Positions 37,452 to 50,931 of a stretch of 64,000 nt of DNA are shown piece after piece; the first letter of the stretch is position 1, and every line of letters begins with the position of its first letter. This stretch comes from Actinomycetota bacterium. Lineage in GTDB: Bacteria > Actinomycetota > Actinomycetes > Mycobacteriales > Mycobacteriaceae. The position numbers were made by a program, and so were the translations under genes. The notes below the pieces were generated by a model, which saw only the letters and a program-made list of their open reading frames with translations, searched no databases and was not told the DNA's origin. The stretch spans positions 402,352-466,351 of the forward strand of contig JBFMGT010000001.1 of assembly GCA_040752555.1 (NCBI GenBank), given 5' to 3'.

Positions 37452-38813
37452 TCACGCCGGGGCGAGTGCCAACACCTCGTCAAAACCTTCGCGCAGGCAA
37501 TCCATGAACACGGGGAGGTCGGGGATGGCGCCGGAATCGACGTCGATTCCCAGGGCGCAGGTGTCGACGTAGGTCAGCAGCGTCACGTTCACCGCCGCGC
37601 CGATCGTGGGCCCAAACGCGTACTGTTTCAAGACGCTCGCCCCGCCCAGAGTGACCGGAACGGGAATGCCGGGCACATCGCTGCAGAGGAAGTCGACGTG
37701 GCGCAGAATCGACCCGATGTACCAGCGCGGCACCCGGTTCAGCACGCCCGCGATGAGTTGCGTGTGGGGTAACGACTTCTCGTTTCGGACCCGTGCCGTG
37801 GTCTCGTGAATGTGCCCGATTCGCTTGGCGGGATCGCTCTCGCCGACGGGAATGTCGAACCGCATCAACGTGATGCGGTTGCCGCCGGGTGCATCGTCTT
37901 CGGTGCGCAAACTGATCGGCATCGTCAGGTGGAGGATGGAGACCCCGACGTCATGCCGCTCGTGGTAGCGGCGCAGCCCCCCGGCCACCCCCGCCACGAA
38001 GGCATCGTTGAGTGCGCCTCCACCGCGGTGGGCCGCCTCCCGCAGCTGGGGCATCGGTATGTCGAGCACGTCGAGACGTCGCAGCAGGGTCCTTCGGCTC
38101 ATCAGCGCCGATCCTGTGCGGTTGACCGGGCGGACGGTCCGGTAGACCGAGGTGACCATTTCCGCGGCTGAGCGCGCGGTGCGCATCGGTGTTCGGGCGC
38201 TGTCGACGAGCAGTCGCGGCAATGCCGAGGCGACGCCGGTGGCGGCCTCGCCGATCAGGCCGGCGCCGTACCGCGCCGCCTCCGCGTAGTCATCGAGCAG
38301 GTTGTGCGCCCGCGCACCCGGCTCCACGTCGTCGGTCGCGGAAAGCTCGGTCAGGCCGAACAGTGTCATCGCGATCTGCACACCGCCCACCCCGTCGGAA
38401 AGTGCATGATGAAAGACGCACAACACCGCGGCGGCACCGTCCGGCAGGCCTTCGATCAGCGTGATCTTCCACAGCGGGCGGGCGCGGTCGAAGTCCTCCA
38501 TCTGCGCCAGACGGGCGAGCTCGAGGACATCGGAGAACGATCCCTTGGACGGTAATGCGGTTCGGCGCATGTGGAAGTCGAGATCGAAATCCGGGCAGTC
38601 CTGCCAGCGCGGCGGGGCGTACAGCGGCGTCTCCACCACCTGCTGACGCAACATCGGGAGCTGACGGCTCAAGTCGTCGACGCGTCGTCGCACGTCATCC
38701 CAGTCCGGCAGACGATCGAGCAGCATCACTGTCACCACGGTCGAGCGCAATCGCGGGTCGCTTTCCATCGACCATGTGAACGCGTCGCTGCTCCGCATGA
38801 ATTCGTTCATCAT
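37452..38813 (-). CDS. Wax ester synthase/DGAT (WS/DGAT)
   Basis: HHALSDG catalytic motif, DFDLDFH, RPLW. Confidence 0.92.
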   Translation of the reverse strand: MMNEFMRSSDAFTWSMESDPRLRSTVVTVMLLDRLPDWDDVRRRVDDLSRQLPMLRQQVVETPLYAPPRWQDCPDFDLDFHMRRTALPSKGSFSDVLELARLAQMEDFDRARPLWKITLIEGLPDGAAAVLCVFHHALSDGVGGVQIAMTLFGLTELSATDDVEPGARAHNLLDDYAEAARYGAGLIGEAATGVASALPRLLVDSARTPMRTARSAAEMVTSVYRTVRPVNRTGSALMSRRTLLRRLDVLDIPMPQLREAAHRGGGALNDAFVAGVAGGLRRYHERHDVGVSILHLTMPISLRTEDDAPGGNRITLMRFDIPVGESDPAKRIGHIHETTARVRNEKSLPHTQLIAGVLNRVPRWYIGSILRHVDFLCSDVPGIPVPVTLGGASVLKQYAFGPTIGAAVNVTLLTYVDTCALGIDVDSGAIPDLPVFMDCLREGFDEVLALAPA

Positions 38814-38970
38814 CAGCTCCTGCGGCCAACGTAAGACCAGCCAGGCCGTCGCAGGGCGGAACTGTCGGTGCTCGGGACGTTCTTCCCCTCAGGTGGTGAC
38901 CGAAGTCCGTACGCTGCAGGCCGACGTGCCCGTCACGGAGCGGCGGGGGTTCCGGCGTCAGGGGGAGCCG

Positions 38971-39510
38971 TCAGCCGTTCTGCACCTCGCCGGTGATGTC
39001 GTGCACCGCGCTGTCGTCGCGGTGGTCGTTCATGTTGCGGCATTCGCCGAAGATCCGCAGTGAGCCGCGCTCGGGATAGTTCCCGGGCCCGGCGATCGCC
39101 ATGACGCCGCCCTTGTGCGCGACTTCGCCGAACGGGTTGAGCCCCGGCGGCGGTCCGGGCGCCCAGCCGGGCTGGCGCGCCGCCGTCGCCGCGACCTGCT
39201 TGGCCATCGCCGCGCTCTCCGTCCCCGCCGGCACTTCATACGCCACGTCGACGCGGCCGTGGAACGGCGGCTCGCCTTGATCGTTGCACCATTCCCACTC
39301 GAACGTGGCATACGTGACGCGAAGATTCGCCGCGCGGGCGATCTGCTTGGCCGCGTCGACGACCTGCGCGCGAGCCTGTTCGTCGGGCAGGCCCTGCACC
39401 GACGGAGTGGCGGACGGGGTGTCTTTCGGTGGGGGAGACATCGATGAGCAACCTCCTGTGAGGGCGGCGACAACGACGAACGATGCTGCCGCGCAGAGTC
39501 GTAACCGCAT
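38971..39510 (-). CDS. LppJ-like lipoprotein
   Basis: Lipobox LTGGC; AKQI..A.L...CNDQGEPPF.G...GW..GPPPG...GECRN resembles recalled LppJ. Confidence 0.75.
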   Translation of the reverse strand: MRLRLCAAASFVVVAALTGGCSSMSPPPKDTPSATPSVQGLPDEQARAQVVDAAKQIARAANLRVTYATFEWEWCNDQGEPPFHGRVDVAYEVPAGTESAAMAKQVAATAARQPGWAPGPPPGLNPFGEVAHKGGVMAIAGPGNYPERGSLRIFGECRNMNDHRDDSAVHDITGEVQNG

Positions 39511-39511
39511 A

Positions 39512-41401
39512 TCAGTAGCCGTGGTCATTGGTGACAGTCTTTCCGGGCCGGTCCCATTCCGGGTCGTAGATGATCGGGGTCTGCACATCGACACCGGGTA
39601 TCGGAACCCGGCCGATGATGGGCACGTCGACCTCGCGAGGCGTGCTCACGGTCACCGGGTGGCGGTGCTCGGCGATCAAACCGTCGGTGACGAGTCGGTC
39701 GCTGTTTCCGGTGGCGATGTCGGTGATGCTGCGCAGCGATTCGCTACCGACCTTGTAATAGGTCGAATGGTCGGCGGGGTCGATGCCGTCGGAGCCCGCG
39801 ACTTCGGCGCGGAAGCGGGTCGATCCGAAGTCCTGCCCGGCCGGATCGGTACCGAGACCGGCCGAGGAACCGACCATGTTGCCCAACTGATCGTTCAGTG
39901 CGTTGGGCAGTCCGGGCCCGGCCTCGCCGAGCATGCCGACGGGATCGGTGGAGGCATCGCCGACGTAGACCTGCCCACCGTTGAGATGGAAATCGGCGGC
40001 GCTGCGGGCCGCATCCGTGCCGGGGCACCCCAGCAGCACAGCGTCGTTGGCCTGCATACCGCTGCGCGCGAACGCATCCGCGACCGTCGTCGAACCGTAG
40101 GAGTGCCCGATGACCGTCGTGTGTTGCGGCACGCTGGGATCGTGCGTGACGCCCAGGCTGTTGACGTCCCACGCCAGCGCGTCGCCACCGGTGCGGGCGA
40201 GGCCCGGGGTGGCGATGTTCGGGTCGGTGAAACTCTCGGGTGTGTCGTAGCCCATCCATGACATCACCGCCGTGGGGCTGTCGGGGTCGGCGGCCAGTGA
40301 CTGGTCGTAGAGGTTGCGCGCATCGTTGTGCCCGTCAGAGAGCCAACCGTCGCGCACGCTGGAGCCGGTGCCCGGGACGATGACGGCGGTGTTGGCGGCC
40401 TTGTCCGGATTGCCGATCGAGATGGCCGCCCGCCCCTTGCCGTCGAAAGCCGTTGGCTCGTAAGCCCAGAGCATCGTCGGCCGCAAGTTGCGGTCCATGC
40501 GCTCCTGCGCGCTGATGTCGCTGTAGCGGCGGTTGTTGCGTTCGTCGCCGTCGACCCCCATCTGGTGCAGCAAACCGTCCTGGGTTCGCTTCGCGTTGTC
40601 GTAGCGCATGACGTCGTCGCGGGACAGCCCGAACCGCCCGGGGTCGGACTTCACGTCGTCGACCGAGACGCCGTGCTGCTGTGCGGCGTGCTCGACTCGG
40701 TCGAGGTCGTCGTCCATCACCGCGACGTTGACCTGGTCGCGCACCTCGGCCGGGAGTCCGTTCAGGTTGCCCAGGATCGGGGGATGCTGCGCGATCAGCT
40801 CCTGGCGCTGCTGCTCGGTGAGGCTGTCCCACCACTGTTTGACGTCCTGCGGGGCGGTGTCCATCGACGGGATCGGCACCTCCTGACCGCCGACGGTGAC
40901 CGTCGGGTTGTCCAGGTTCGGGCCGTCGGCCTGATCGATTGCCGCCGCGGTGTTCTCGTCGAGGTCGGTGAACAGCTGCAGGATCTTCTTCAGCATCGTC
41001 GTGCAGTTGTCGGCGATGCTGTGCAGGAAGCGCCCCACCAACCACTGCTCGGGGGTCACGGTGCCGTCGTCGGCGACCGCGAAACCCATTTTCTCCAGGG
41101 ACGAGACGAGGTTCAGCAGCGCGTCCCGCAGCGCGCCCATCTGCAGACCGGCATTCTGCAGCGCAGACTGCAGCTGCTGCAGACGCATCGCGGTGCGCTC
41201 CTGGATCGCGATGTCCCTCAGACCGCGTGCGATGGCAGCCTCGGCGGCCGCGCCTTTCCAGTGGTCCTGCAGGCGGGACAGCGTCTCCCGCTCACCGGCG
41301 ATGACGGTCTGGACCTCGGAGTACGTGCGCCCGAGTTCAGTGGCCGCGTCGACCAGCTTGCCCGGTTGCGTCCCCCTGACCACCGATATCGATACCGGCA
41401 T
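39512..41401 (-). CDS. WXG100-like N-domain + alpha/beta hydrolase (DUF1023/Rv2079-like)
   Basis: WKGAAAEAA in helical N-term; WMGYDTP, GHSYG, GCPG, DHSTY. Confidence 0.82.
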   Translation of the reverse strand: MPVSISVVRGTQPGKLVDAATELGRTYSEVQTVIAGERETLSRLQDHWKGAAAEAAIARGLRDIAIQERTAMRLQQLQSALQNAGLQMGALRDALLNLVSSLEKMGFAVADDGTVTPEQWLVGRFLHSIADNCTTMLKKILQLFTDLDENTAAAIDQADGPNLDNPTVTVGGQEVPIPSMDTAPQDVKQWWDSLTEQQRQELIAQHPPILGNLNGLPAEVRDQVNVAVMDDDLDRVEHAAQQHGVSVDDVKSDPGRFGLSRDDVMRYDNAKRTQDGLLHQMGVDGDERNNRRYSDISAQERMDRNLRPTMLWAYEPTAFDGKGRAAISIGNPDKAANTAVIVPGTGSSVRDGWLSDGHNDARNLYDQSLAADPDSPTAVMSWMGYDTPESFTDPNIATPGLARTGGDALAWDVNSLGVTHDPSVPQHTTVIGHSYGSTTVADAFARSGMQANDAVLLGCPGTDAARSAADFHLNGGQVYVGDASTDPVGMLGEAGPGLPNALNDQLGNMVGSSAGLGTDPAGQDFGSTRFRAEVAGSDGIDPADHSTYYKVGSESLRSITDIATGNSDRLVTDGLIAEHRHPVTVSTPREVDVPIIGRVPIPGVDVQTPIIYDPEWDRPGKTVTNDHGY

Positions 41402-41558
41402 GACCCTCCACTCCTCGCCGAGTCGATGGTGTCACACCCTCAGTGCCCTCCGTGGAGTCATATCGCCGTGCCCGCGGAGTTGGGATCGGTAGCCCGCCGG
41501 CCTCGGTGTACTCGTCGCATCCACCATCCGGTGGGCACTGGACGAAAAGGAACCGGCC

Positions 41559-42374
41559 GTGAGCATCACCACCATCAGCCGCAGCCTGCTCCCCGCGGCT
41601 GTGCGGGGCACCCGCTTCACGGGGCTCTACGCCTTGAAGCCGTGGTTCACCGGACGGCTGACCCCGATCATCGACGCGGCCGTCGCGCGACGCATCTCGC
41701 CGGACGTGTTCACCGCGGCCGGCGTGGTGGCGGCCGGGGCGGCCGGAACCGCCATCGCGTTCGGCTCCTGGCCGTTGGCGGCGGTCTTCATGGTGCTCCG
41801 CCTCGCGGGCGCCAACCTCGACGGAGCCGTCGCCCGCGCCCGCGGCGTGAGCAGGCCGTGGGGATTCGTCGTCAACGAACTCGGAGATCGCACCGCCGAC
41901 CTGCTCGGCTTCGCCGGCCTGGCGGTCTGGGCCGCGCGCCAACACGGTCCCGGACTGCAGTGGCTGTCCTGGCCGGTGCTGCAGGTTCTGCTGGCCGCCC
42001 TGGCCGCCACACTGCCGACCTTCGCCTCGCTGGCCGTCGCCGCGGCCGGACTCACGCGCCGCAACGGCGGACCGCTCGGCAAGACCGAACGCTGCCTGTT
42101 CCTGGTACTCGCGACGGCATTCCCGGTCCTGCTGCCGATCCTGCTGGCGCAACTGGTGAACGGATCGCTGCTCACCACCGTGCTGCGACTGCGCGCCGCC
42201 CATCGCGAACTCAAGGCCCAGCGCGCGCAGGCTCTCGTCGACGCCCAGTTCGACGCCATCACCCAGCCGTTCACCGCCGCGCACCGACGGTTCACCGCAG
42301 TCACCCAGCGCATCGCCCGCGTCGCTCATCCGTACGAGGCCGTGACCCGGCCGATGGCCGAGGTGGCCGCATGA
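41559..42374 (+). CDS. CDP-alcohol phosphatidyltransferase (YnbA-like)
   Basis: NLDGAVAR...G...NELGD...D, GPLGKTER. Confidence 0.88.
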   Translation: MSITTISRSLLPAAVRGTRFTGLYALKPWFTGRLTPIIDAAVARRISPDVFTAAGVVAAGAAGTAIAFGSWPLAAVFMVLRLAGANLDGAVARARGVSRPWGFVVNELGDRTADLLGFAGLAVWAARQHGPGLQWLSWPVLQVLLAALAATLPTFASLAVAAAGLTRRNGGPLGKTERCLFLVLATAFPVLLPILLAQLVNGSLLTTVLRLRAAHRELKAQRAQALVDAQFDAITQPFTAAHRRFTAVTQRIARVAHPYEAVTRPMAEVAA

Positions 42375-42988
42375 TCGCCGCCGCGCTCCGGCACTGGCTC
42401 TGGCGGACGGTGTGCGCCGCCTCGGGTGGGCTCACCGTGACCGGGCAGTGGACCGTCCAGGGCGGCTGCATCGTCGTCGCCAATCACTCCTCGCACGCCG
42501 ACACCGCGGTCCTGGTGGCCGCGCTTCCTGCCGGCGCCCGTCCCGTCTTCGGGGCCGCTGCCGACTACTGGTTCGCGGTTCCGGTGCGACGGCTCATCGC
42601 CACGTCCCTGATCGGGGTGCTGCCGGTGCGTCGCAGCGGCGACGGCAACTACGACGCGCTGTTGACCGCCGCCGGGCCTGCCCTTCGGGCGGGACGTACC
42701 GTCGTCCTCTATCCCGAGGGCACCCGCTCGACCGACGGCAGCATCGGCGAATTCCGCTCTGGCGCAGTCCGGTTGGCGCGTGACTGCAACGTGCCGATCG
42801 TCTCTGTCGCGATCACCGGGACTGCCGACGTGCTGCCGAAGGACGGTCACTTTGCGCCAGGGCCCATGCAGGTGCGTCTCGGGGCTCCGGTCGACCCGTT
42901 CACCGTCACGGCCGCGCAATTGCGCTCGCAAGTGCTGGAGCTGCGCGGCGATGTGGTGGCCGACGACCGTTACCTTCTGGCGTCCTGA
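42371..42988 (+). CDS. Lysophospholipid acyltransferase (PlsC-like)
   Basis: NHSSHAD, YPEGTRS; ATGA overlap. Confidence 0.92.
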   Translation: MIAAALRHWLWRTVCAASGGLTVTGQWTVQGGCIVVANHSSHADTAVLVAALPAGARPVFGAAADYWFAVPVRRLIATSLIGVLPVRRSGDGNYDALLTAAGPALRAGRTVVLYPEGTRSTDGSIGEFRSGAVRLARDCNVPIVSVAITGTADVLPKDGHFAPGPMQVRLGAPVDPFTVTAAQLRSQVLELRGDVVADDRYLLAS

Positions 42989-43000
42989 CGGCGTGTCGTA

Positions 43001-43888
43001 ATGACCACCCTCCACCTGGATCGCCGGATGCCGCTCGACATCGATCTCGGCCCCCTGCACCTCCACCTGTACTCGCGCGCTGTGTTCCTGATGTGGGTGA
43101 CGGTGGCCGTCCTGGCGATTGCCGGTGTGGCCGTTCTGATTTCCCGCAGGTCGGAGTTGGTGCAAAAGTGGCGCACCTGGGTGCTGATCGCCCCTGCTGT
43201 CGGCGTGCCGGTGTGGTTCGGCCCCGGTACGACCGCGGCGTTGGCGGCGGCACTGGCCGTCGTCGCGGTGCTCGAGTACGTGCGGCTGGCGAAGCTGGGC
43301 CGGGCCGACGCGGTTCTTCTGGTCGTGCTGGCGGTGGCATATCCGCTGGCTGCGTGGCTGCGCCCGTCGCTTCTGTATGCCGCGCCGGCGGTGGTGCTGC
43401 TGTGCGCGGTCCCGTCAGTGCTGGCAGGCGACGTCGAGAGCGGCGCCAAGCGCGCCGCGTTCGTCGGGTTCGGTTCGGTGTGGATCTGCTGGTCGCTCTC
43501 GCACCTCGTGATGGTGTGGCCGGACAGTTATCTGCTGTGCCTGGCGGTCGCAGCAACCGACGTCGCTGCATGGTGCGGCGGAAAAGCACTGCGCTGCATG
43601 CGATGGGCGCGCCGACCGCTGTCCCCGCTGAGTCCCAACAAGACGGTCGGCGGGATGGTCGGCGCGATCATCGGCGCCGCTCTCATCCTGACTCTGCTCG
43701 GCACCCTGTCCGTCGGGCTGCTCATTGCCGTCGCGCTCGGCGGCGTGTTCGGTGACCTGCTCGAGTCCATGCTCAAGCGCCAGGCTCAGGTCAAAGATGC
43801 CGGCAATTGGCTGCCCGGGTTCGGCGGCCTGCTCGACCGTATCGACTCCCTTCTCGTCGTCCTTCCCCTTGCCTACTTCCTCGGATGA
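43001..43888 (+). CDS. Phosphatidate cytidylyltransferase (YnbB/CdsA-like)
   Basis: [38 protein letters not shown]. Confidence 0.92.
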
Positions 43889-43898
43889 AAGAGCTGAC

Positions 43899-45560
43899 AT
43901 GACCCAGTGCGTGACCGCGACCCGCGGCCTGAACCTGCGCGACGTCACCGTTGTCGCCGACGAAACCGTGCTGTTGCAGCGGGTTTCGCTGCAGGCACGG
44001 CCCGGCACGCTCACCGCGGTGATCGGTCCTTCGGGTGCGGGCAAGTCGACCCTGGCCAAGGTGATCGCCGGTGCAGTTCGACCCGCCACGGGCACGGTGG
44101 CCTTGCATGCGCGCGACGTGCGGGATTCGCGTGACGACATCGGAATGGTGCCCCAGGGTGACGTCGTGCACGGACGGCTCACGGTCGCACAGGCGCTGCA
44201 GTTCGCCGCGGAACTGCGGATGGCCGCCGACACCGGCGCCGGGGACCGGGCGTGGGCGATCGCCGCGGTGCTCGAGGAACTCGAGTTGACCTCGCATGCC
44301 GCCACGCGCATCGAATCCCTGTCGGGCGGTCAGCGTAAGCGGGTGTCGGTGGCGATCGAATTGCTCACCGAACCCGGCCTTCTCGTGTTGGACGAACCGA
44401 CGACCGGGCTCGATCCCGCCCTGGACCGGTCGGTGATGGCGATGCTGCGCCGCCTGGCCGATGCGGGCCGCGTCGTCGTGGTGGTGACGCACTCGTTGTC
44501 GTTCCTGGACGTGTGCGATCAGGTGCTGATGCTCGCCCCCGGCGGGAAGACGGTGTTCGTCGGAGCGCCCGAGCAGATCAATTCCTTTCTGGGTGGCGCG
44601 GATTGGGCCGACATCTTCGCCACGGTGTGCGCTGATGCCGACAGTCTGCATCGACGATTCCTGCAGCGGCGCGCCAGGCAGGAGGCCGAGACCGTGTGCC
44701 TAGCCGTCGGCGCACCGGCGGTGTCCGACCGTCTGCGGCCGGGCCTGTGGCGGCAGACGTCGACCCTGGTGCGGCGCCAGGTCCGCTTGCTCCTGGGGAA
44801 CCGGGGCTACCTCGCGTTCCTGGCGGTGTTGCCGTTCCTCGTGGGTCTGCTGCCGTTGACCGTCGCCGGCGACAGCGGGTTGGGCGCATTGCCGGCGCCC
44901 GGCGCGCCACCGTTCGAGGCCAAGCACGTGATCGCATTGACGAGCTTCGCGGCGATCCTGATGGGCGCGACGCTGACGGTCCGCGACCTCGTGGGCGAAC
45001 GTGCGGTGTACCGGCGCGAGCAGGCGGCGGGACTGTCCGCTACGGCCTATCTGATGGCGAAGGCGTTGGTGTTCGGTGGGGTCGCTGTGCTGCAGTCCGC
45101 GGTCCTCGTGGCGATCGTGATCGCGCCGGCAATCGGCAAGCCCGGTCCGTCGAGTGCGGTCGTGCTCGGAAGCGCGACGGTCGAACTGCTTGCCGGTGTC
45201 GCGGCGACCTCGGTGGTGGCCGTATTGATGGGGCTGACGATTTCGGCCGTGGCGCGGACGGGTGACCAGGTGATCGTGCTGTTGGCGATCGCGCTGATGG
45301 CGCAGCTGGTGCTGGCCGGCGGGTTCATCCCGGTGACGGGCCGGCCGGTGATGGAAACCCTCGCGTGGATCATGCCGGGGCGGTGGGGGTTCGCGGCCAC
45401 CGCGTCGACGGCAGACGTGACGCGCCTGGTCGCCGGTATCGCCGACGATGTGCATTGGCAACACACGGCGAGTGCGTGGCTGGTGAACATGGCGATGCTG
45501 GGAGTGCTCGGCGTGCTCTTCGCCGCCGCCGCGCGGTGGCGGCTTCGGGCACGACTGTGA
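43899..45560 (+). CDS. Fused ABC transporter ATPase/permease (Rv1747-like, no FHA domains)
   Basis: GPSGAGKS, LSGGQ, LDEPTTGLDP, then ABC2 TM domain with RW.FAA.ASTAD. Confidence 0.88.
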   Translation: MTQCVTATRGLNLRDVTVVADETVLLQRVSLQARPGTLTAVIGPSGAGKSTLAKVIAGAVRPATGTVALHARDVRDSRDDIGMVPQGDVVHGRLTVAQALQFAAELRMAADTGAGDRAWAIAAVLEELELTSHAATRIESLSGGQRKRVSVAIELLTEPGLLVLDEPTTGLDPALDRSVMAMLRRLADAGRVVVVVTHSLSFLDVCDQVLMLAPGGKTVFVGAPEQINSFLGGADWADIFATVCADADSLHRRFLQRRARQEAETVCLAVGAPAVSDRLRPGLWRQTSTLVRRQVRLLLGNRGYLAFLAVLPFLVGLLPLTVAGDSGLGALPAPGAPPFEAKHVIALTSFAAILMGATLTVRDLVGERAVYRREQAAGLSATAYLMAKALVFGGVAVLQSAVLVAIVIAPAIGKPGPSSAVVLGSATVELLAGVAATSVVAVLMGLTISAVARTGDQVIVLLAIALMAQLVLAGGFIPVTGRPVMETLAWIMPGRWGFAATASTADVTRLVAGIADDVHWQHTASAWLVNMAMLGVLGVLFAAAARWRLRARL

Positions 45561-45640: not shown

Positions 45641-46856
45641 ATGTTCCCGCGCAGTTCGTTGGCCATCGGTGAGCGGTTGTCGGTGTTGTTCGACGAGCTC
45701 GCGGAGTTGACGGGGCAGCGTAACGCGATCGACGGGCGGATCGTGGAGATCTTCGCCGAGATCGACCGCGACCAGTTGTGGGCCGCCGCCGGGGCCCGCT
45801 CGACGGCCGGGCTGGTGGCGTGGAAGGCCGGGGTGTCGCCGTCGCGGGCTCAGACGATCGCGGCGATCGCGCACCGCTACGACGAATTCCCTTCCTGTGT
45901 GCAGGGGTTGGCGCAGGGCCGGTTCTCCGTGGACCAGGTCGGGGTGATCGCCGAGCATGGGCTGCCCGGCTCTGACGAGCACTTCGCCACCATGGCCCAG
46001 ACTGCAACGGTCGCCCAGCTGCGCACCGCGCTGAAGATGCAACCCGACCCCGAACCCCATCCGCACCCCGTGGATCCGGGGCCGGTCCCGTCAATCACCT
46101 CCACCTCCAATGACCAGTACACCTACTGGCAGCTCGCGCTGCCCCATGTCGAGAACGCCGCGTTCGAAGCCGCGCTGGCGTCGCATCGCGATGCGCTGAT
46201 CGCCGACTGGAAAGCCACAGACCCCGACGGGCGGGCGCCGATACCGGGTGCGGCGGCGTTCCTGCGGCTAGTCGACGCGAGCTGGGATGCCGAGGCTGCC
46301 GCGCGTCCGCACGGGCAACGCACCACCGTCGTGGTGCACATCGACGTAGCCACCCGAGTGGCCGCGCTGCACCTGGGACCCGTTCTGCCCGAGCGTGATC
46401 GCCGCTATCTCACCTGTGATGCCACCTGCGAGGTGTGGTTTCGCCGCGACGGACAGGTGATCGGGGCCGGCCGATCGGCCCGCACCGTGAACCGGCGGTT
46501 ACGCCGCGCGCTGGAACACCGCGACCGCGCCTGCGTGGTGCCCGGCTGCGGGGGCCACCCGAGCGCTGCACGCGCACCACCTGGTGCACTGGGAGGACGG
46601 CGGCCCCACCGAACTGTGGAACCTGGCACTGGTGTGTCCGTATCACCACCGGGCGCATCACCGCGGCCTGATCACGATCACCGGCCCCGCCGACCACCTC
46701 GTCGTCACCGACGCCGCCGGAAGATCCCTGAGCTCAGCCTCGCTGGCCCGACCACCCACCCAACCGCCACTGGACGTACCCCCGTGCCCAGGCCCGACCG
46801 GCGAACGCGCACAGTGGTGGTGGTACCAACCCTACGAACCCCGCCCACCCATCTAG
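45641..46856 (+). pseudogene. DUF222/HNH endonuclease (REP13E12-like), frameshifted
   Basis: Frame 1 ends RDRACVVPGCG; HNH part HAHHLVHW..GGPT...NL..VCPYHH is in another frame; G5 run at 46550-46554. Confidence 0.85.
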
Positions 46857-46880
46857 CGGTCGCGCGAGGGCAATCCGCGA

Positions 46881-47462
46881 TCAGGACGCGGGTGCGCCGG
46901 TGTGGGACGGGGCGAGAAGGCGGGTGGAGAGCTCGACCAGGGTTCGCTGCAATTCGCCGTCGTCGACGTCCGACAGGTCGGGATCGGCGGCGACCCGGCA
47001 GACACCGGAGAGGAACACCCTGAGGGCGATCCGGTCGGCCACGCATGGCTGCGGTCCTTCGAGCAGCTCCTGCAGACGGTCGGTGACCACGCTGAATTCT
47101 GGTTCGTCGCGCACCAATTGGTCGACCGCGGGGTCGCCGTAGAACAGGACCGACAGCTGCCGGTACCTGACCACCATCTCGATCAGGCCACTGACCAACA
47201 CCTCGCGGCGGCGATGCATGTCGGGAAGAACTTCCGCGATCCGGATGACCCTGGCCATGTCCTCGATCGAGGGCCGCAACACTTCCAGCGCGATGTCTTC
47301 TTTCGAGCGGAACTGGTAGTAGACCGCCGCCTTGCTCACCCCGATGCGGTCGGCGATCATCTGCAGCGACGTTCCGTGTATGCCGTGCTCGACGAACAAC
47401 GTGAGGGCAGCGTCGAGCACCCGCTGCCGCGCCAAGCCGCGCGGAGCCGTGGGTCGCGCCAT
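46881..47462 (-). CDS. TetR family regulator divergent from mmpS-mmpL
   Basis: GTSLQMIADRIGVSKAAVYYQF. Confidence 0.92.
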   Translation of the reverse strand: MARPTAPRGLARQRVLDAALTLFVEHGIHGTSLQMIADRIGVSKAAVYYQFRSKEDIALEVLRPSIEDMARVIRIAEVLPDMHRRREVLVSGLIEMVVRYRQLSVLFYGDPAVDQLVRDEPEFSVVTDRLQELLEGPQPCVADRIALRVFLSGVCRVAADPDLSDVDDGELQRTLVELSTRLLAPSHTGAPAS

Positions 47463-47556
47463 CCGTTCGTCCTTCGTGTCGAGCCGATTACGTGCACAAC
47501 AATAACGCCCGATCCCGGCGGCGACGGCAACTTCACCTGACTCTACGGCTCGATAA

Positions 47557-47576
47557 AGCTAGCCGATCGGCTTGCT
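47557..47576. promoter_or_regulatory. Palindrome AGCTAGCCGA/TCGGCTTGCT, putative TetR operator
   Basis: 9/10 dyad; partial repeat CTAGCCGA at ~47604. Confidence 0.65.
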
Positions 47577-47647
47577 CAAATTAGTTACCGCATCTATGTT
47601 TGCCTAGCCGAGCAATTGACGTGTTGTGCGGCGGTGAAGGGGCGTAC

Positions 47648-48082
47648 ATGGTCGGGATCATCAGGCGGGCGTGGTTGCCGCTGCTCATCGTCGCGGTGAT
47701 CGCCATCGCGGCCACCGTGGTGTACCGCATGCACGGGTTCTTCGGTTCGAACAACGAAACGACTCGACCCGGCGCCGGTCTTGCCCAGGACGCGGAACCC
47801 TTCAACCCCAAGGTGGTCACCTACGAGATCACAGGGCCGACAGGAACGGTGGCGAACATCAACTACCTCGACCTCGACGCGACGCCGCACCGTGTCGACA
47901 ACGCGCCACTGCCATGGTCGCTCACCTTGAAGACCACCAAACCTTCGGCGAGCGCCACGATCATCGCGCAAGGCGACGGTGACAGCATCGGCTGTCGAGT
48001 CCTCGTCGACGACGAGGTGCGCGATCAGCAAGCGTCCGCCGGCGTCAACGCACAGACGTCCTGCCTGGTGAAATCCCTGTGA
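47648..48082 (+). CDS. mmpS: MmpS family membrane protein
   Basis: [40 protein letters not shown]. Confidence 0.93.
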
Positions 48083-50931
48083 CCGAGCCGACCACCCGCC
48101 GCGCGCGGATCCCGCGCTTCCTCCGCTTGTTCTGTGTTCCCGTCCTACTGGGATGGCTCGCGCTGACGGCGCTTCTCAACGTCATCGTCCCGCAGTTGGA
48201 AGTGGTGGGCGCCGCCAACTCCGCGTCGATCACCCCGACGGACGCACCCTCACTCCAAGCCACCCAGCTGGTCGGAAAACTGTTCGGAGAGTACGACTCC
48301 AACAGCTCGGCCATGATCGTCTTGGAAAGCGACACTCCTCTCGGCGCCGAGGCGCACAGATACTACGACGGCCTGATCGCCGACCTGAGAAAAGACACCA
48401 CCCACGTCGAACACATCCAAGATCTCTGGGGCGATCCACTCACGTCCTCGGGATCGCAGTCTGCCGACAACCTCTCCGCCTATGTGCAGCTCTACATCGC
48501 CGGAGACCAGGGTGAGACGCTCGCGAACGATTCGGTCAAGGCAGTGCGCGACATCGTGGCGGCTCATCCACCGCCGCCGGGTCTGCGCGTCTACGTCACC
48601 GGTGCCGGGCCGCTGAGCTCAGACCAGCAACATGCCGGCGACAAGAGTCTGCAGCTCGTCACCGCGGTGACCTTTCTTGTCATCATCACCATGCTGCTGA
48701 TCGTCTACCGGTCCATCGTGACCGTGCTGATCGTGCTCCTGACGGTGGTGCTCGAGCTGTTGGTCGCCCGCGGCGTCGTCGCGTTCCTGGGGTGGCATCA
48801 CCTCATCGAGCTGTCGACCTTCGCGGTGAACCTGTTGACACTGCTGGCGATCGCCGCCGCCACCGACTACGCCATCTTCCTGGTCGGCCGCTATCACGAA
48901 GCGCGGAGCCTCGGCGAAGACCGCGAAAAAGCCTTCTACACCATGTATCACGGCACCGGACACGTGATCCTCGGATCCGGACTGACGATCGCCGGGGCCA
49001 CCCTGTGCCTGCATTTCACCCGGCTGCCGTACTTCCAGACACTCGGTGTGCCGCTGGCCATCGGGATGTTCGTCATCACCGCGGCGGCACTGACGATGGC
49101 ACCGGCCATCATCACCATGGCCTCCCGGTTCGGACTGCTCGAGCCCAAAAGGGCCCAACGGACTCGTGGATGGCGCCGGATCGGGACGGCGGTCGTTCGG
49201 TGGCCCGGGCCCATCCTCGTGGCGTCGATCGCGGTCGTGATGGTCGGGCTGCTCGCTCTGCCGTCCTACAAAACCAGCTACGACGACAAGAAGTATCTGC
49301 CGGCCAGCGTCGAAGCCAATGTCGGGTATCAGGTTGCGAGCAAACACTTCCCGCAGGCTCGGCTCAACCCCGAGGTGCTGATGCTGGTCGCCGACCACGA
49401 TCTGCGGAACTCGACCGACATGCTCATCGTGGACCGGGTCGCCAAGGAGGTCTTCCACCTACCCGGGATCGCGCGGGTACAGACGATCACGCGTCCGCTC
49501 GGGACGCCGATCGAAGGCTCCTCGATCCCGTACATCGTCGGACAGCAGGGCGTGAACCAGAAGCTGACGCAGTCCTACGCCGAGGCGCGCACCGCCGACC
49601 TGCTGACCCAAGCCAACGACATCAACAAGCAGATCGATGTGCTCCGTCAACAGTTGACTCTGCAGACGGAAAGTGCGAACGCGCAGCAGGAGCAGTCCGA
49701 CGTCCTCAAACAGACGGTGGCGGTCACCAACGAATTGCGCGACAAGATAGCCAATTTCGACGACTTCCTGCGGCCCATCAGGAACTACTTCTATTGGGAA
49801 CCGCATTGCTACGACATCCCCGCCTGCTATGCCCTGCGCTCGATCTTCGACGCCCTGGACGGCATCGACCAGCTCTCCGATCTGCTGGCCGAGACGACGA
49901 TCAGCCTCGACAAGATCAACGCCCTACAGCCCAAGCTGCTGGCACTGCTCCCGCCGCAGATCGCCAGCCAGGAACGCAACCGCGATCAGATCATGACGAA
50001 CTACGCGACGCAGAAGGCGCAGCAGGATCTGCAGGACCGCCAGCAGTCGGACCCCAACGCCATCGGCCGGGCGTTCAACCAGTCGAAGATCGACGACTCC
50101 TTCTACCTGCCGCCCGAGGTGTTCGAGAACCCCGATTTCAAACGCGGACTCAAGCAATTCGTCTCGCCCGACGGCAAAGCGGTCCGGTTCATCATCTCCC
50201 ACCAGGGGGATCCCGCGACACCGGAGGGCATCTCACACGTCGAGCAGATCAAGAACGCGGCATTCGAAGCGATCAAAGGCACGCCGCTGGAGACCTCGAA
50301 GATCTACCTGGGCGGGACCGCCGCGACATACAAGGACATGCGCGACGGCTCGAACTACGACCTGATCATCGCCGCGATCTCGGCGATCTGCCTGATCTTC
50401 ATCATCATGCTGCTCATCACCCGCGCGGTGATCGCCTCAGTGGTGATCGTCGGCACCGTGGTGTTGTCCCTGGCCGCGTCGTTCGGACTGGCAGTCCTGT
50501 TGTGGCAGCACATCGTTGGTGTGGAGCTGCACTGGATGGTCCTGGCGATGTCGATCATCATCCTGCTCGCCGTGGGGTCGGACTACAACCTGCTGCTGGT
50601 CGCGCGGTTCAAGGAAGAACGCGACGCCGGGCTCAACACCGGCATCATCCGCGCGATTGCCGGCAGCGGCAGCGTGGTGACGTCAGCCGGTCTGGTGTTC
50701 GCGTTCACGATGATGACGTTCGCGATCAGTGATCTGAAGATCATGGCTCAGGTCGGCACCACGATCGGCCTCGGCCTGCTGGTGGACACCCTGGTGATCC
50801 GATCGTTCATGACACCGTCCATCGCAGCGCTGATGGGCCGGTGGTTCTGGTGGCCGCAGGTGATCCGTACGCGGCCGGCGCGGCAAACCAGGTCGGTGTT
50901 GCCTGCGGCGCCGGCTTCGCCAGGGGGATGA
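48079..50931 (+). CDS. mmpL: MmpL family RND transporter (MmpL4/5-like)
   Basis: [33 protein letters not shown]. Confidence 0.95.

Follow-up and report, generated by a model that had tools for sequence, protein, structure and literature searches.

A putative four-gene mycobacterial operon combining YnbA- and YnbB-type enzymes with a paralogue of the exporter Rv1747

The DNA analysed here, a stretch of 64,000 nt from an environmental Mycobacterium referred to as the window (contig JBFMGT010000001.1), carries on its + strand, between positions 41559 and 45560, a compact unit of four co-directional genes. They encode a YnbA-type cytidine diphosphate (CDP)-alcohol phosphotransferase-like membrane protein, a PlsC-type acyltransferase, a YnbB/CdsA-like cytidylyltransferase and an ATP-binding cassette (ABC) half-transporter. 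The reading that we favour, with moderate confidence, is that this operon serves the accessory synthesis and export of a dedicated, undescribed membrane lipid derived from CDP-diacylglycerol. The exporter is a paralogue of Rv1747 of M. tuberculosis, an identity that had been missed in a preliminary description of this DNA.

Inspection of the sequence confirmed the four genes at these coordinates. The transferase (41559..42374, 271 residues) scores 23 bits against PF01066, marginally above the cut-off of 22, and is followed by the PlsC/LPLAT-family acyltransferase (42371..42988, 205 residues; PF01553, 84.8 bits), the cytidylyltransferase (43001..43888, 295 residues; PF01148, 124.7 bits) and the half-transporter (43899..45560, 553 residues), in which a nucleotide-binding domain (NBD; ABC_tran, 104.8 bits) is fused to an ABC-2 membrane domain (ABC2_membrane, 71.7 bits). 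The GC content by codon position (frames rich in GC at the third position) agrees with all four gene calls. The first two genes share an ATGA stop/start overlap at 42371-42374, 12 nt separate the acyltransferase stop (TGA, 42986-42988) from the next ATG at 43001, and 10 nt lie between the stop of the cytidylyltransferase gene (TGA, 43886-43888) and the ATG of the ABC gene at 43899. These junctions bear out the preliminary description, which had proposed three coupled enzymes with an ABC exporter 10 nt downstream. The transferase gene starts with GTG at 41559, with a Shine-Dalgarno-like AAGGA 7 nt upstream in the divergent intergenic region 5' of the operon (41402..41558, read on the + strand), and most homologues of the protein align only from about residue 20. 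A sequence scan found no terminator-like or promoter-like site above chance inside the unit, and no sigma-70 consensus was found in 41402..41558; these scans carry little information, the sigma-70 consensus being uninformative for mycobacteria.

The operon is considered accessory because the source genome (6.2 Mb, 99.99% complete) encodes its housekeeping CdsA elsewhere (195.9 bits, contig 23) and, besides the gene in the operon, has five PF01066 genes; a PgsA1-type gene of its own also lies outside the operon. The earlier claim that the unit is distinct from housekeeping pgsA and cdsA holds accordingly. The operon is distributed as a patchy, accessory element: of 301 genomes sampled from the genus, 33 (~11%) encode an orthologue of the transferase at E <= 1e-20. 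Related loci were scanned with one genome per species, and the best 80 of 366 were examined. All of these 80 belong to Mycobacterium or Mycolicibacterium, and the carriers include M. scrofulaceum, M. paraffinicum, M. genavense, M. triplex, M. sherrisii, M. iranicum and M. tusciae; beyond Actinomycetota the distribution is known from E. coli alone. One lineage (G094 and relatives; L057, L110 and L112) shows a tandem duplication of the transferase-acyltransferase pair, and one cluster (L064/L156, G306) is decayed: its acyltransferase, CdsA-like and ABC genes are all frameshifted.

The active-site motif of the transferase departs from the four-Asp signature D1xxD2G1xxAR...G2xxxD3xxxD4. D2 (D88), the Gly, the Ala-Arg pair, G2 and D4 (D110, followed by R111) are present, D1 is replaced by A85, and D3 is replaced by N106 with E107 next to it. 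The YnbA-type NExGD variant that had been noticed before was confirmed: the window sequence contains GANLDGAVARARGVSRPWGFVVNELGDRTAD, and in the pairwise alignment E. coli YnbA likewise has N-E-x-G-D at this place. The protein was aligned by HMMER to M. tuberculosis PgsA1 (6H53), at positions that agree with the numbering of the PgsA1 paper. A85 and D88 take the places of D68 (D1) and D71 (D2), both of which bind Mg-1 in PgsA1, and N106 takes that of D89 (D3), which binds Mg-1 and bridges to Mg-2 (PMC6506517). D110 corresponds to D93 (D4), the presumed catalytic base, and R111 to R94 at the inositol phosphate (ino-P) site; at sulfate site 1, S132, R152 (through its main chain) and R155 find their counterparts in T154, K175 and R178 (PMC6506517). 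The equivalents of PgsA1 K135 and R137 are not kept (Ser and Ala in the window protein), and R210, which lies outside the alignment, is a tentative counterpart of R195. By this alignment the presumed base and the phosphate pocket are retained, and metal site 1 is left with one of its three carboxylates. An explanation in which the loss of D3 amounts to loss of the catalytic base, favouring a phosphate acceptor, was dropped, because the presumed base is D4 (D93 in PgsA1), which is kept here, and D3 is a metal ligand (PMC6506517).

The AlphaFold (AF2) model of the transferase, of moderate confidence (predicted local distance difference test, pLDDT, 76), shows the multi-helix transmembrane fold of CDP-alcohol phosphotransferases. 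Its best Foldseek match is PgsA1 (6H59), with a template modelling (TM) score of 0.75 and a root mean square deviation (rmsd) of 2.7 Å over 192 columns; other phosphatidylinositol phosphate (PIP) synthases (PIPS), IPCT-DIPPS and AF2299 follow, and phosphatidylserine and phosphatidylglycerol phosphate (PGP) synthases match much more poorly. The C-terminal ~45 residues form a poorly modelled extension. This segment (residues ~225-271; window 42050-42374), modelled as a low-confidence long helix, carries loose 'TQPF/AVTQR/AVTRP' repeats and is confined to the window-type subclade. The nearest NCBIfam models are those of archaetidylinositol phosphate (AIP) synthase (52 bits) and PIP synthase (48 bits), scores that lie far beneath the cut-offs of both models; judged by the equivalog NF045883 (47.6 bits versus a cut-off of 170), the protein is not a PIP synthase.

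Only 627 matches to this transferase family (E <= 1e-3) were retrieved among 1.84 billion cluster representatives. Of the 70 full-length representatives in which the motif is recognisable, 66 show Asn at D3 followed by Glu, and D1 is Asn or Ala in 65. The family alignment, which reaches from Mycobacterium to E. coli YnbA, contains 16 invariant positions (Y24, K27, R81, D88, G89, A92, G102, N106, E107, D110, R167, G171, K175, R178, T206 and R210). The window protein carries the whole signature of the YnbA-type subfamily, that is, no Asp at D1, Asn-Glu at D3 and D3+1, an N-terminal Y-x-x-K and R..GG..GK.[DE]R. PgsA1-type PIP synthases come next in a search with the family profile, at ~95 bits versus 145-235 for true members. 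The transferase is placed in the YnbA-type subfamily and is, in structure, a modified PIP-synthase-like enzyme. Its orthologues are named 'CDP-alcohol phosphatidyltransferase family protein' or PGP synthase in databases, and the latter label is probably wrong.

The cytidylyltransferase is nearer to YnbB (34% identity over 192 residues, 72 bits) than to the CdsA of its own genome, with which only 84 residues could be aligned (56.6 bits) and the N-terminal half not at all. Together with the placement of the transferase in the YnbA subfamily, this substantiates the resemblance to the E. coli ynbAB module that the preliminary description had pointed out. The PF01148 domain and its acidic metal-binding positions are in place, and both the acidic and the basic positions of the CdsA signature are kept, with FGDLLES and LDRID in the window protein (GD..ES, DRID); an Asp-Asp dyad has been described for TmCdsA (PMC4083444), and its assignment here is by signature position, not by structure alignment. 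The score against the CdsA equivalog NF008635 is 64 bits versus a cut-off of 385. The canonical PGHGG is replaced by PGFGG in this protein, in 71 of 71 module-linked mycobacterial orthologues and also in those module-linked homologues of other Actinomycetota classes in which the signature was read; PGHGG is retained in one E. coli-like module from another genus of the same family. The His of this motif is not discussed in the TmCdsA paper (PMC4083444).

In the acyltransferase the PF01553 domain contains both family motifs, NHSSHAD (HX4D) and YPEGTR (EGTR), and HX4D is conserved in 80 of 80 orthologous matches. T. maritima PlsC (5KYM, 54 bits) was the sole sequence match in the PDB. The score against the PlsC subfamily TIGR00530 (64.2 bits versus 102.95) is too low to assign lysophosphatidic acid as the acyl acceptor.

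The association of the three enzymes was followed through the 61 mycobacterial loci with at least 6 kb of sequence on both sides, here called well-flanked. The acyltransferase is found in 57 of them, the CdsA-like gene in 60 and the full triad in 56. Gene order and orientation are highly variable, the order seen in the window being that of 23 of the 80 loci, and since the module is kept despite this rearrangement, a functional association is favoured over chance adjacency. The triad is not confined to mycobacteria: in other Actinomycetota classes YnbA-type genes (LNALDG...NE..DR) adjoin a CdsA-like gene with PGFGG, usually with an acyltransferase and sometimes with a multi-pass membrane protein of ~200 residues, designated F9 (L197, L200, L203, L208). 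Of the 61 mycobacterial loci, 23 likewise have F9 beside the CdsA-like gene (e.g. L053:3755-4357, L097, L100, L106 and L107). F9 has no Pfam match and no homologue in the genome of the window; possibly the module originally had it as a fourth component, for instance as a scramblase or a phosphatase.

The window ABC protein has the architecture of the Rv1747 family, with a fused NBD and ABC-2 membrane domain and close sequence kinship, and lacks the two FHA domains (none in Pfam) and the cognate kinase, no kinase gene adjoining it. In the PDB the closest matches of its NBD are lipid transporters of the ABCA and ABCG/PDR families. The one close paralogue in the genome, 53% identical, is a protein of 854 residues with two FHA domains, which match the structures of Rv1747 FHA-1 and FHA-2 (6CCD/6CAH) with 194 and 168 bits. 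An Rv1747-type FHA-FHA-ABC gene was found in 24 of 24 genomes of the genus searched, often with several further paralogues, and the 854-residue protein is for this reason taken as the Rv1747 orthologue. Its gene (G000:C11:151230-153794; L072:625-3189) has no adjoining kinase, unlike the pknF-Rv1747 pair of M. tuberculosis; a PknF-like kinase was sought beside it and not found. Environmental mycobacteria (e.g. G003, G008, G010, G014) have a greatly enlarged set of Rv1747-family genes: as many as 8 matching places (E<=1e-60) occur in a single genome, and some copies lie in tandem.

In 38 of the 61 well-flanked loci an ABC gene at least 50% identical to that of the window is found no more than 7 kb from the transferase gene, and in 20 of these 38 it bears FHA domains. 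Genes for Ser/Thr kinases were seen at 13 loci, every one of which carries the ABC. A tree of 74 ABC cores unites all 44 module-linked proteins in one clade (support 0.78) and sets them apart from a second clade (support 0.97) that comprises 28 Rv1747 orthologues together with other paralogues. FHA domains occur in 23 of the 44 linked proteins, the FHA-bearing forms branching first, and the FHA-less form of the window belongs to a derived group of 15 placed beside FHA-bearing sisters with the same gene order. In this tree the linked clade is sister to the Rv1747 orthologues; two FHA domains, with Ser/Thr kinases as neighbours, are its ancestral state, and the FHA domains were lost in the subclade of the window.

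The transferase tree consists of three clades that track the ABC status. Clade A (28 sequences, the window included) shares with the window a co-directional ABC, in clade B1 (22 loci) an FHA-ABC is accompanied by kinases and F9, and in clade B2 (30 loci) 29 of 30 loci are without such an ABC. Eight loci of clades A and B1 also seemed to lack it; seven of them lie on short or cut contigs or have a frameshifted ABC, and in the eighth (L127) the downstream sequence is present and gives no ABC match. A short MMPL-family transporter is found nearby in 18 of 30 B2 loci versus 2 of 27 in clade A and 0 of 22 in B1. From these trees the exporter is seen to be co-inherited with the enzymes in two clades, and in the third it appears to have been replaced by another type of lipid transporter. 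Conservation of the ABC linkage, which the preliminary description had set as a check on its proposal, was largely borne out: the linked exporters are one clade, present in two of the three module clades and in 38 of 61 loci, and one module clade is devoid of them. In a part of the ABC-less clade (L059-L061 and L063; G128, G051, G147, G088) the module lies beside an asparagine-synthase-like amidotransferase, a fusion of GNAT and ATP-grasp domains and an MFS transporter, neighbours that might point to a head group, or a modification, derived from an amino acid.

The observations establish which genes are present, how tightly they are coupled, the state of their motifs, the fold of the transferase, the persistence of the triad and the co-inheritance of a dedicated exporter of the Rv1747 clade. 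From these we infer the chemical steps, the acceptor and the direction in which the product is moved, as follows. The PlsC-type acyltransferase would make or remodel a pool of phosphatidic acid (PA), which the YnbB-type enzyme would activate with cytidine triphosphate (CTP) to a liponucleotide of the CDP-diacylglycerol type. The YnbA-type enzyme would then transfer the phosphatidyl group; the polar acceptor is probably a phospho-alcohol, as suggested by the retained phosphate pocket. Finally, the ABC half-transporter, probably working as a homodimer like other fused half-transporters, would flip or export the product across the plasma membrane.

Several observations weigh against this scheme. 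Two of the four canonical metal-ligand Asp residues of the transferase are replaced (A85, N106), so that catalysis of the classical two-metal type is unproven, and the signature His of the cytidylyltransferase has become Phe. The operon contains no phosphatase gene to complete a route like that of PIP synthase. All three enzymes fall far below the NCBIfam equivalog cut-offs, and their substrates are therefore not transferable by homology. One of the three module clades is without the ABC, and the MMPL association found there is loose (1-7 kb). Lastly, related genomes are not independent observations, and the counts of co-inheritance given above are patterns rather than statistics.

Other explanations of the unit were weighed against the same evidence. 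Instead of an ordinary phosphodiester phospholipid, the product might be a pyrophosphate-linked glycolipid anchor (diacylglycerol-PP-sugar, comparable to E. coli MPIase). In that case the YnbA-type enzyme would pass the phosphatidyl group to a sugar-1-phosphate, and it would be a lipid-linked glycan that the ABC exports. ABC-2-type exporters commonly carry pyrophosphate-lipid-linked glycans, and the YnbA family combines a phosphate-binding pocket with an altered metal site. In E. coli ynbA lies directly 5' of ynbB. Over-production of E. coli YnbB raises MPIase, and CdsA/YnbB have been implicated in the formation of GlcNAc-PP-diacylglycerol from PA, CTP and N-acetylglucosamine (GlcNAc)-1-phosphate (PMC6362211). 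This route is nevertheless judged unlikely, since no glycosyltransferase recurs in the neighbourhoods examined, the presumed base D4 is retained and suits a hydroxyl acceptor, and YnbA itself is not tied to MPIase in the literature found; to our knowledge, an MPIase-like lipid is not known in mycobacteria. Slightly less probable is a role in salvage or remodelling, where lyso-lipids are re-acylated, recycled PA is re-activated and no new lipid is made, the ABC moving lipid inwards or keeping leaflet asymmetry. Many PlsC-family enzymes do re-acylate lysophospholipids (NCBIfam matches to acyl-ACP--phospholipid acyltransferases). An NBD-first fused ABC-2 protein without a binding protein has, however, the architecture of an exporter, salvage has no need of a dedicated head-group transferase with a conserved signature of its own, and housekeeping enzymes are already encoded in the genome.

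The family-wide replacement of D1 and D3, with a PF01066 score barely above the threshold, could also mean that the YnbA-type protein is a non-catalytic partner of the YnbB-type enzyme (a pseudoenzyme, a channelling or a regulatory subunit), the only output being the liponucleotide or a remodelled PA pool. This is less probable again: the sixteen invariant positions include D2, D4, the Arg/Lys pocket and the Glu beside the Asn, a pattern that fits a working but modified active site, and Asn can still bind Mg2+. The least probable of these explanations, and one that we would hardly expect to hold, treats the ABC as a mere neighbour, such as an efflux pump for drugs or other substrates, with no functional relation to the three enzymes. 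The ABC is lacking in ~38% of the well-flanked loci and in one whole clade, and paralogues of the Rv1747 family are numerous in environmental mycobacteria; on the other side, 44 of 44 linked ABCs fall in one clade, apart from every other paralogue sampled, the gene stays beside the enzymes through inversions and reorderings, the transferase tree tracks its presence, and the gap in the window is only 10 nt.

The reading as an accessory synthesis-and-export operon can be extended, more tentatively, to the whole family. YnbA and YnbB, with or without the PlsC-type acyltransferase and the F9-like protein of ~200 residues, might constitute an old and widespread pathway to an undescribed class of bacterial membrane lipid. 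In mycobacteria the Rv1747 family might then include a dedicated branch, ancestrally gated by Ser/Thr-kinase/FHA signalling, that has the product of this pathway as its native cargo. We regard this extension as conceivable but doubtful. If true, the whole Rv1747 family would move phosphatidyl-(phospho)alcohol lipids, and the substrate of Rv1747 would become approachable in environmental mycobacteria. The occurrence of an Rv1747 paralogue 10 nt from the enzymes that likely make its cargo is in itself a testable lead to the substrate class of the family. The reaction of the transferase, once solved, would add to the chemistry known for these enzymes, which are central to the synthesis of lipids, because the metal site that defines the CDP-alcohol phosphotransferases is rewritten throughout the YnbA-type family.

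The genes flanking the operon have a lipid flavour (WS/DGAT, a WXG-hydrolase with a lipoprotein, TetR-MmpS-MmpL) or encode a frameshifted DUF222-HNH protein, and are unrelated to it. On the - strand, 37452-41401 holds genes for a wax-ester synthase of the WS/DGAT type, for a lipoprotein and for an Abhydrolase_8 hydrolase that carries a fused WXG100/PPE-like N-domain; the hydrolase gene adjoins the operon divergently, and none of these genes is conserved beside the module in other genomes. Directly 3' of the operon, at 45641-47023 on the + strand, lies a DUF222 (13E12-type) gene. From ~46560 its HNH motif (LHAHHLVHWEDGG...CPYHHRAHH) runs on in a different reading frame, so that the gene is either a frameshifted pseudogene or affected by a sequencing error. 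It overlaps the convergent TetR gene if read through, and related copies are scattered in G001, the closest relative sampled. The unit of TetR (- strand), MmpS and MmpL occupies 46881-50931, ~1.3 kb downstream of the operon. MmpL genes (54-86% identity) occur within 9 kb in 8 of 27 clade-A loci, which perhaps reflects just the usual density of mmpL genes. Comparison with G001 gave no clean island borders; synteny stops at ~36.7 kb of the window, and the rest consists of scattered paralogue matches.

Among known systems, the E. coli ynbA-ynbB pair is similar in that both transferases carry LYxxKP at the N-terminus, xxLDGxxAR, G-x3-N-E-x-G-D-x3-D and RxxGGPxGKx[DE]R, and in that the transferase gene adjoins a CdsA paralogue, as it does in nearly all well-flanked loci and in other Actinomycetota classes. 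YnbA is 25% identical to the window protein and differs from it at D1, which is Asn in YnbA and Ala in the window with an Asn one residue later, and in the residue after D4, which is Val in YnbA and Arg in the window, as in ino-P-using enzymes. YnbB has PGHGG where the window protein has PGFGG. In the ynbABCD cluster the partners are YnbC (hydrolase/methyltransferase) and YnbD (phosphatase), whereas here they are a PlsC-type acyltransferase and an ABC exporter. YnbB has tentatively been linked to MPIase (PMC6362211), no functional work on YnbA was found in the literature searched, and even in E. coli K-12 the two conserved genes have no established function.

The PIP synthases (M. tuberculosis PgsA1, 6H53/6H59, and the PIPS of M. 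kansasii and R. salmoninarum) are the best structural, PDB and NCBIfam matches of the transferase, which has equivalents of D2, D4, R94, S132, R152 and R155 of PgsA1 and differs from it at D68 and D89 (Ala and Asn) and at K135 and R137 (Ser and Ala). The housekeeping CdsA/PlsC route shares the Pfam families and the motifs HX4D, EGTR, GD..S and DRxD with the window enzymes, which are set apart by their scores below the equivalog cut-offs, the change of His to Phe in the signature and their accessory, patchy distribution. Rv1747, which is paired with PknF in M. tuberculosis, has the same NBD-first fused ABC-2 architecture as the window ABC; the latter is a paralogue and not an orthologue, both of its FHA domains have been lost and no kinase gene adjoins it. 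The cargo of Rv1747 is unproven, phosphatidylinositol mannosides (PIMs) or lipo-oligosaccharides having been proposed, and the protein is required for growth of M. tuberculosis in mice (PMC5549992). No link between Rv1747 and CDP-diacylglycerol-dependent enzymes was found in the literature. A module of this kind was already known, though uncharacterised, and what is new here is its link to the Rv1747 family.

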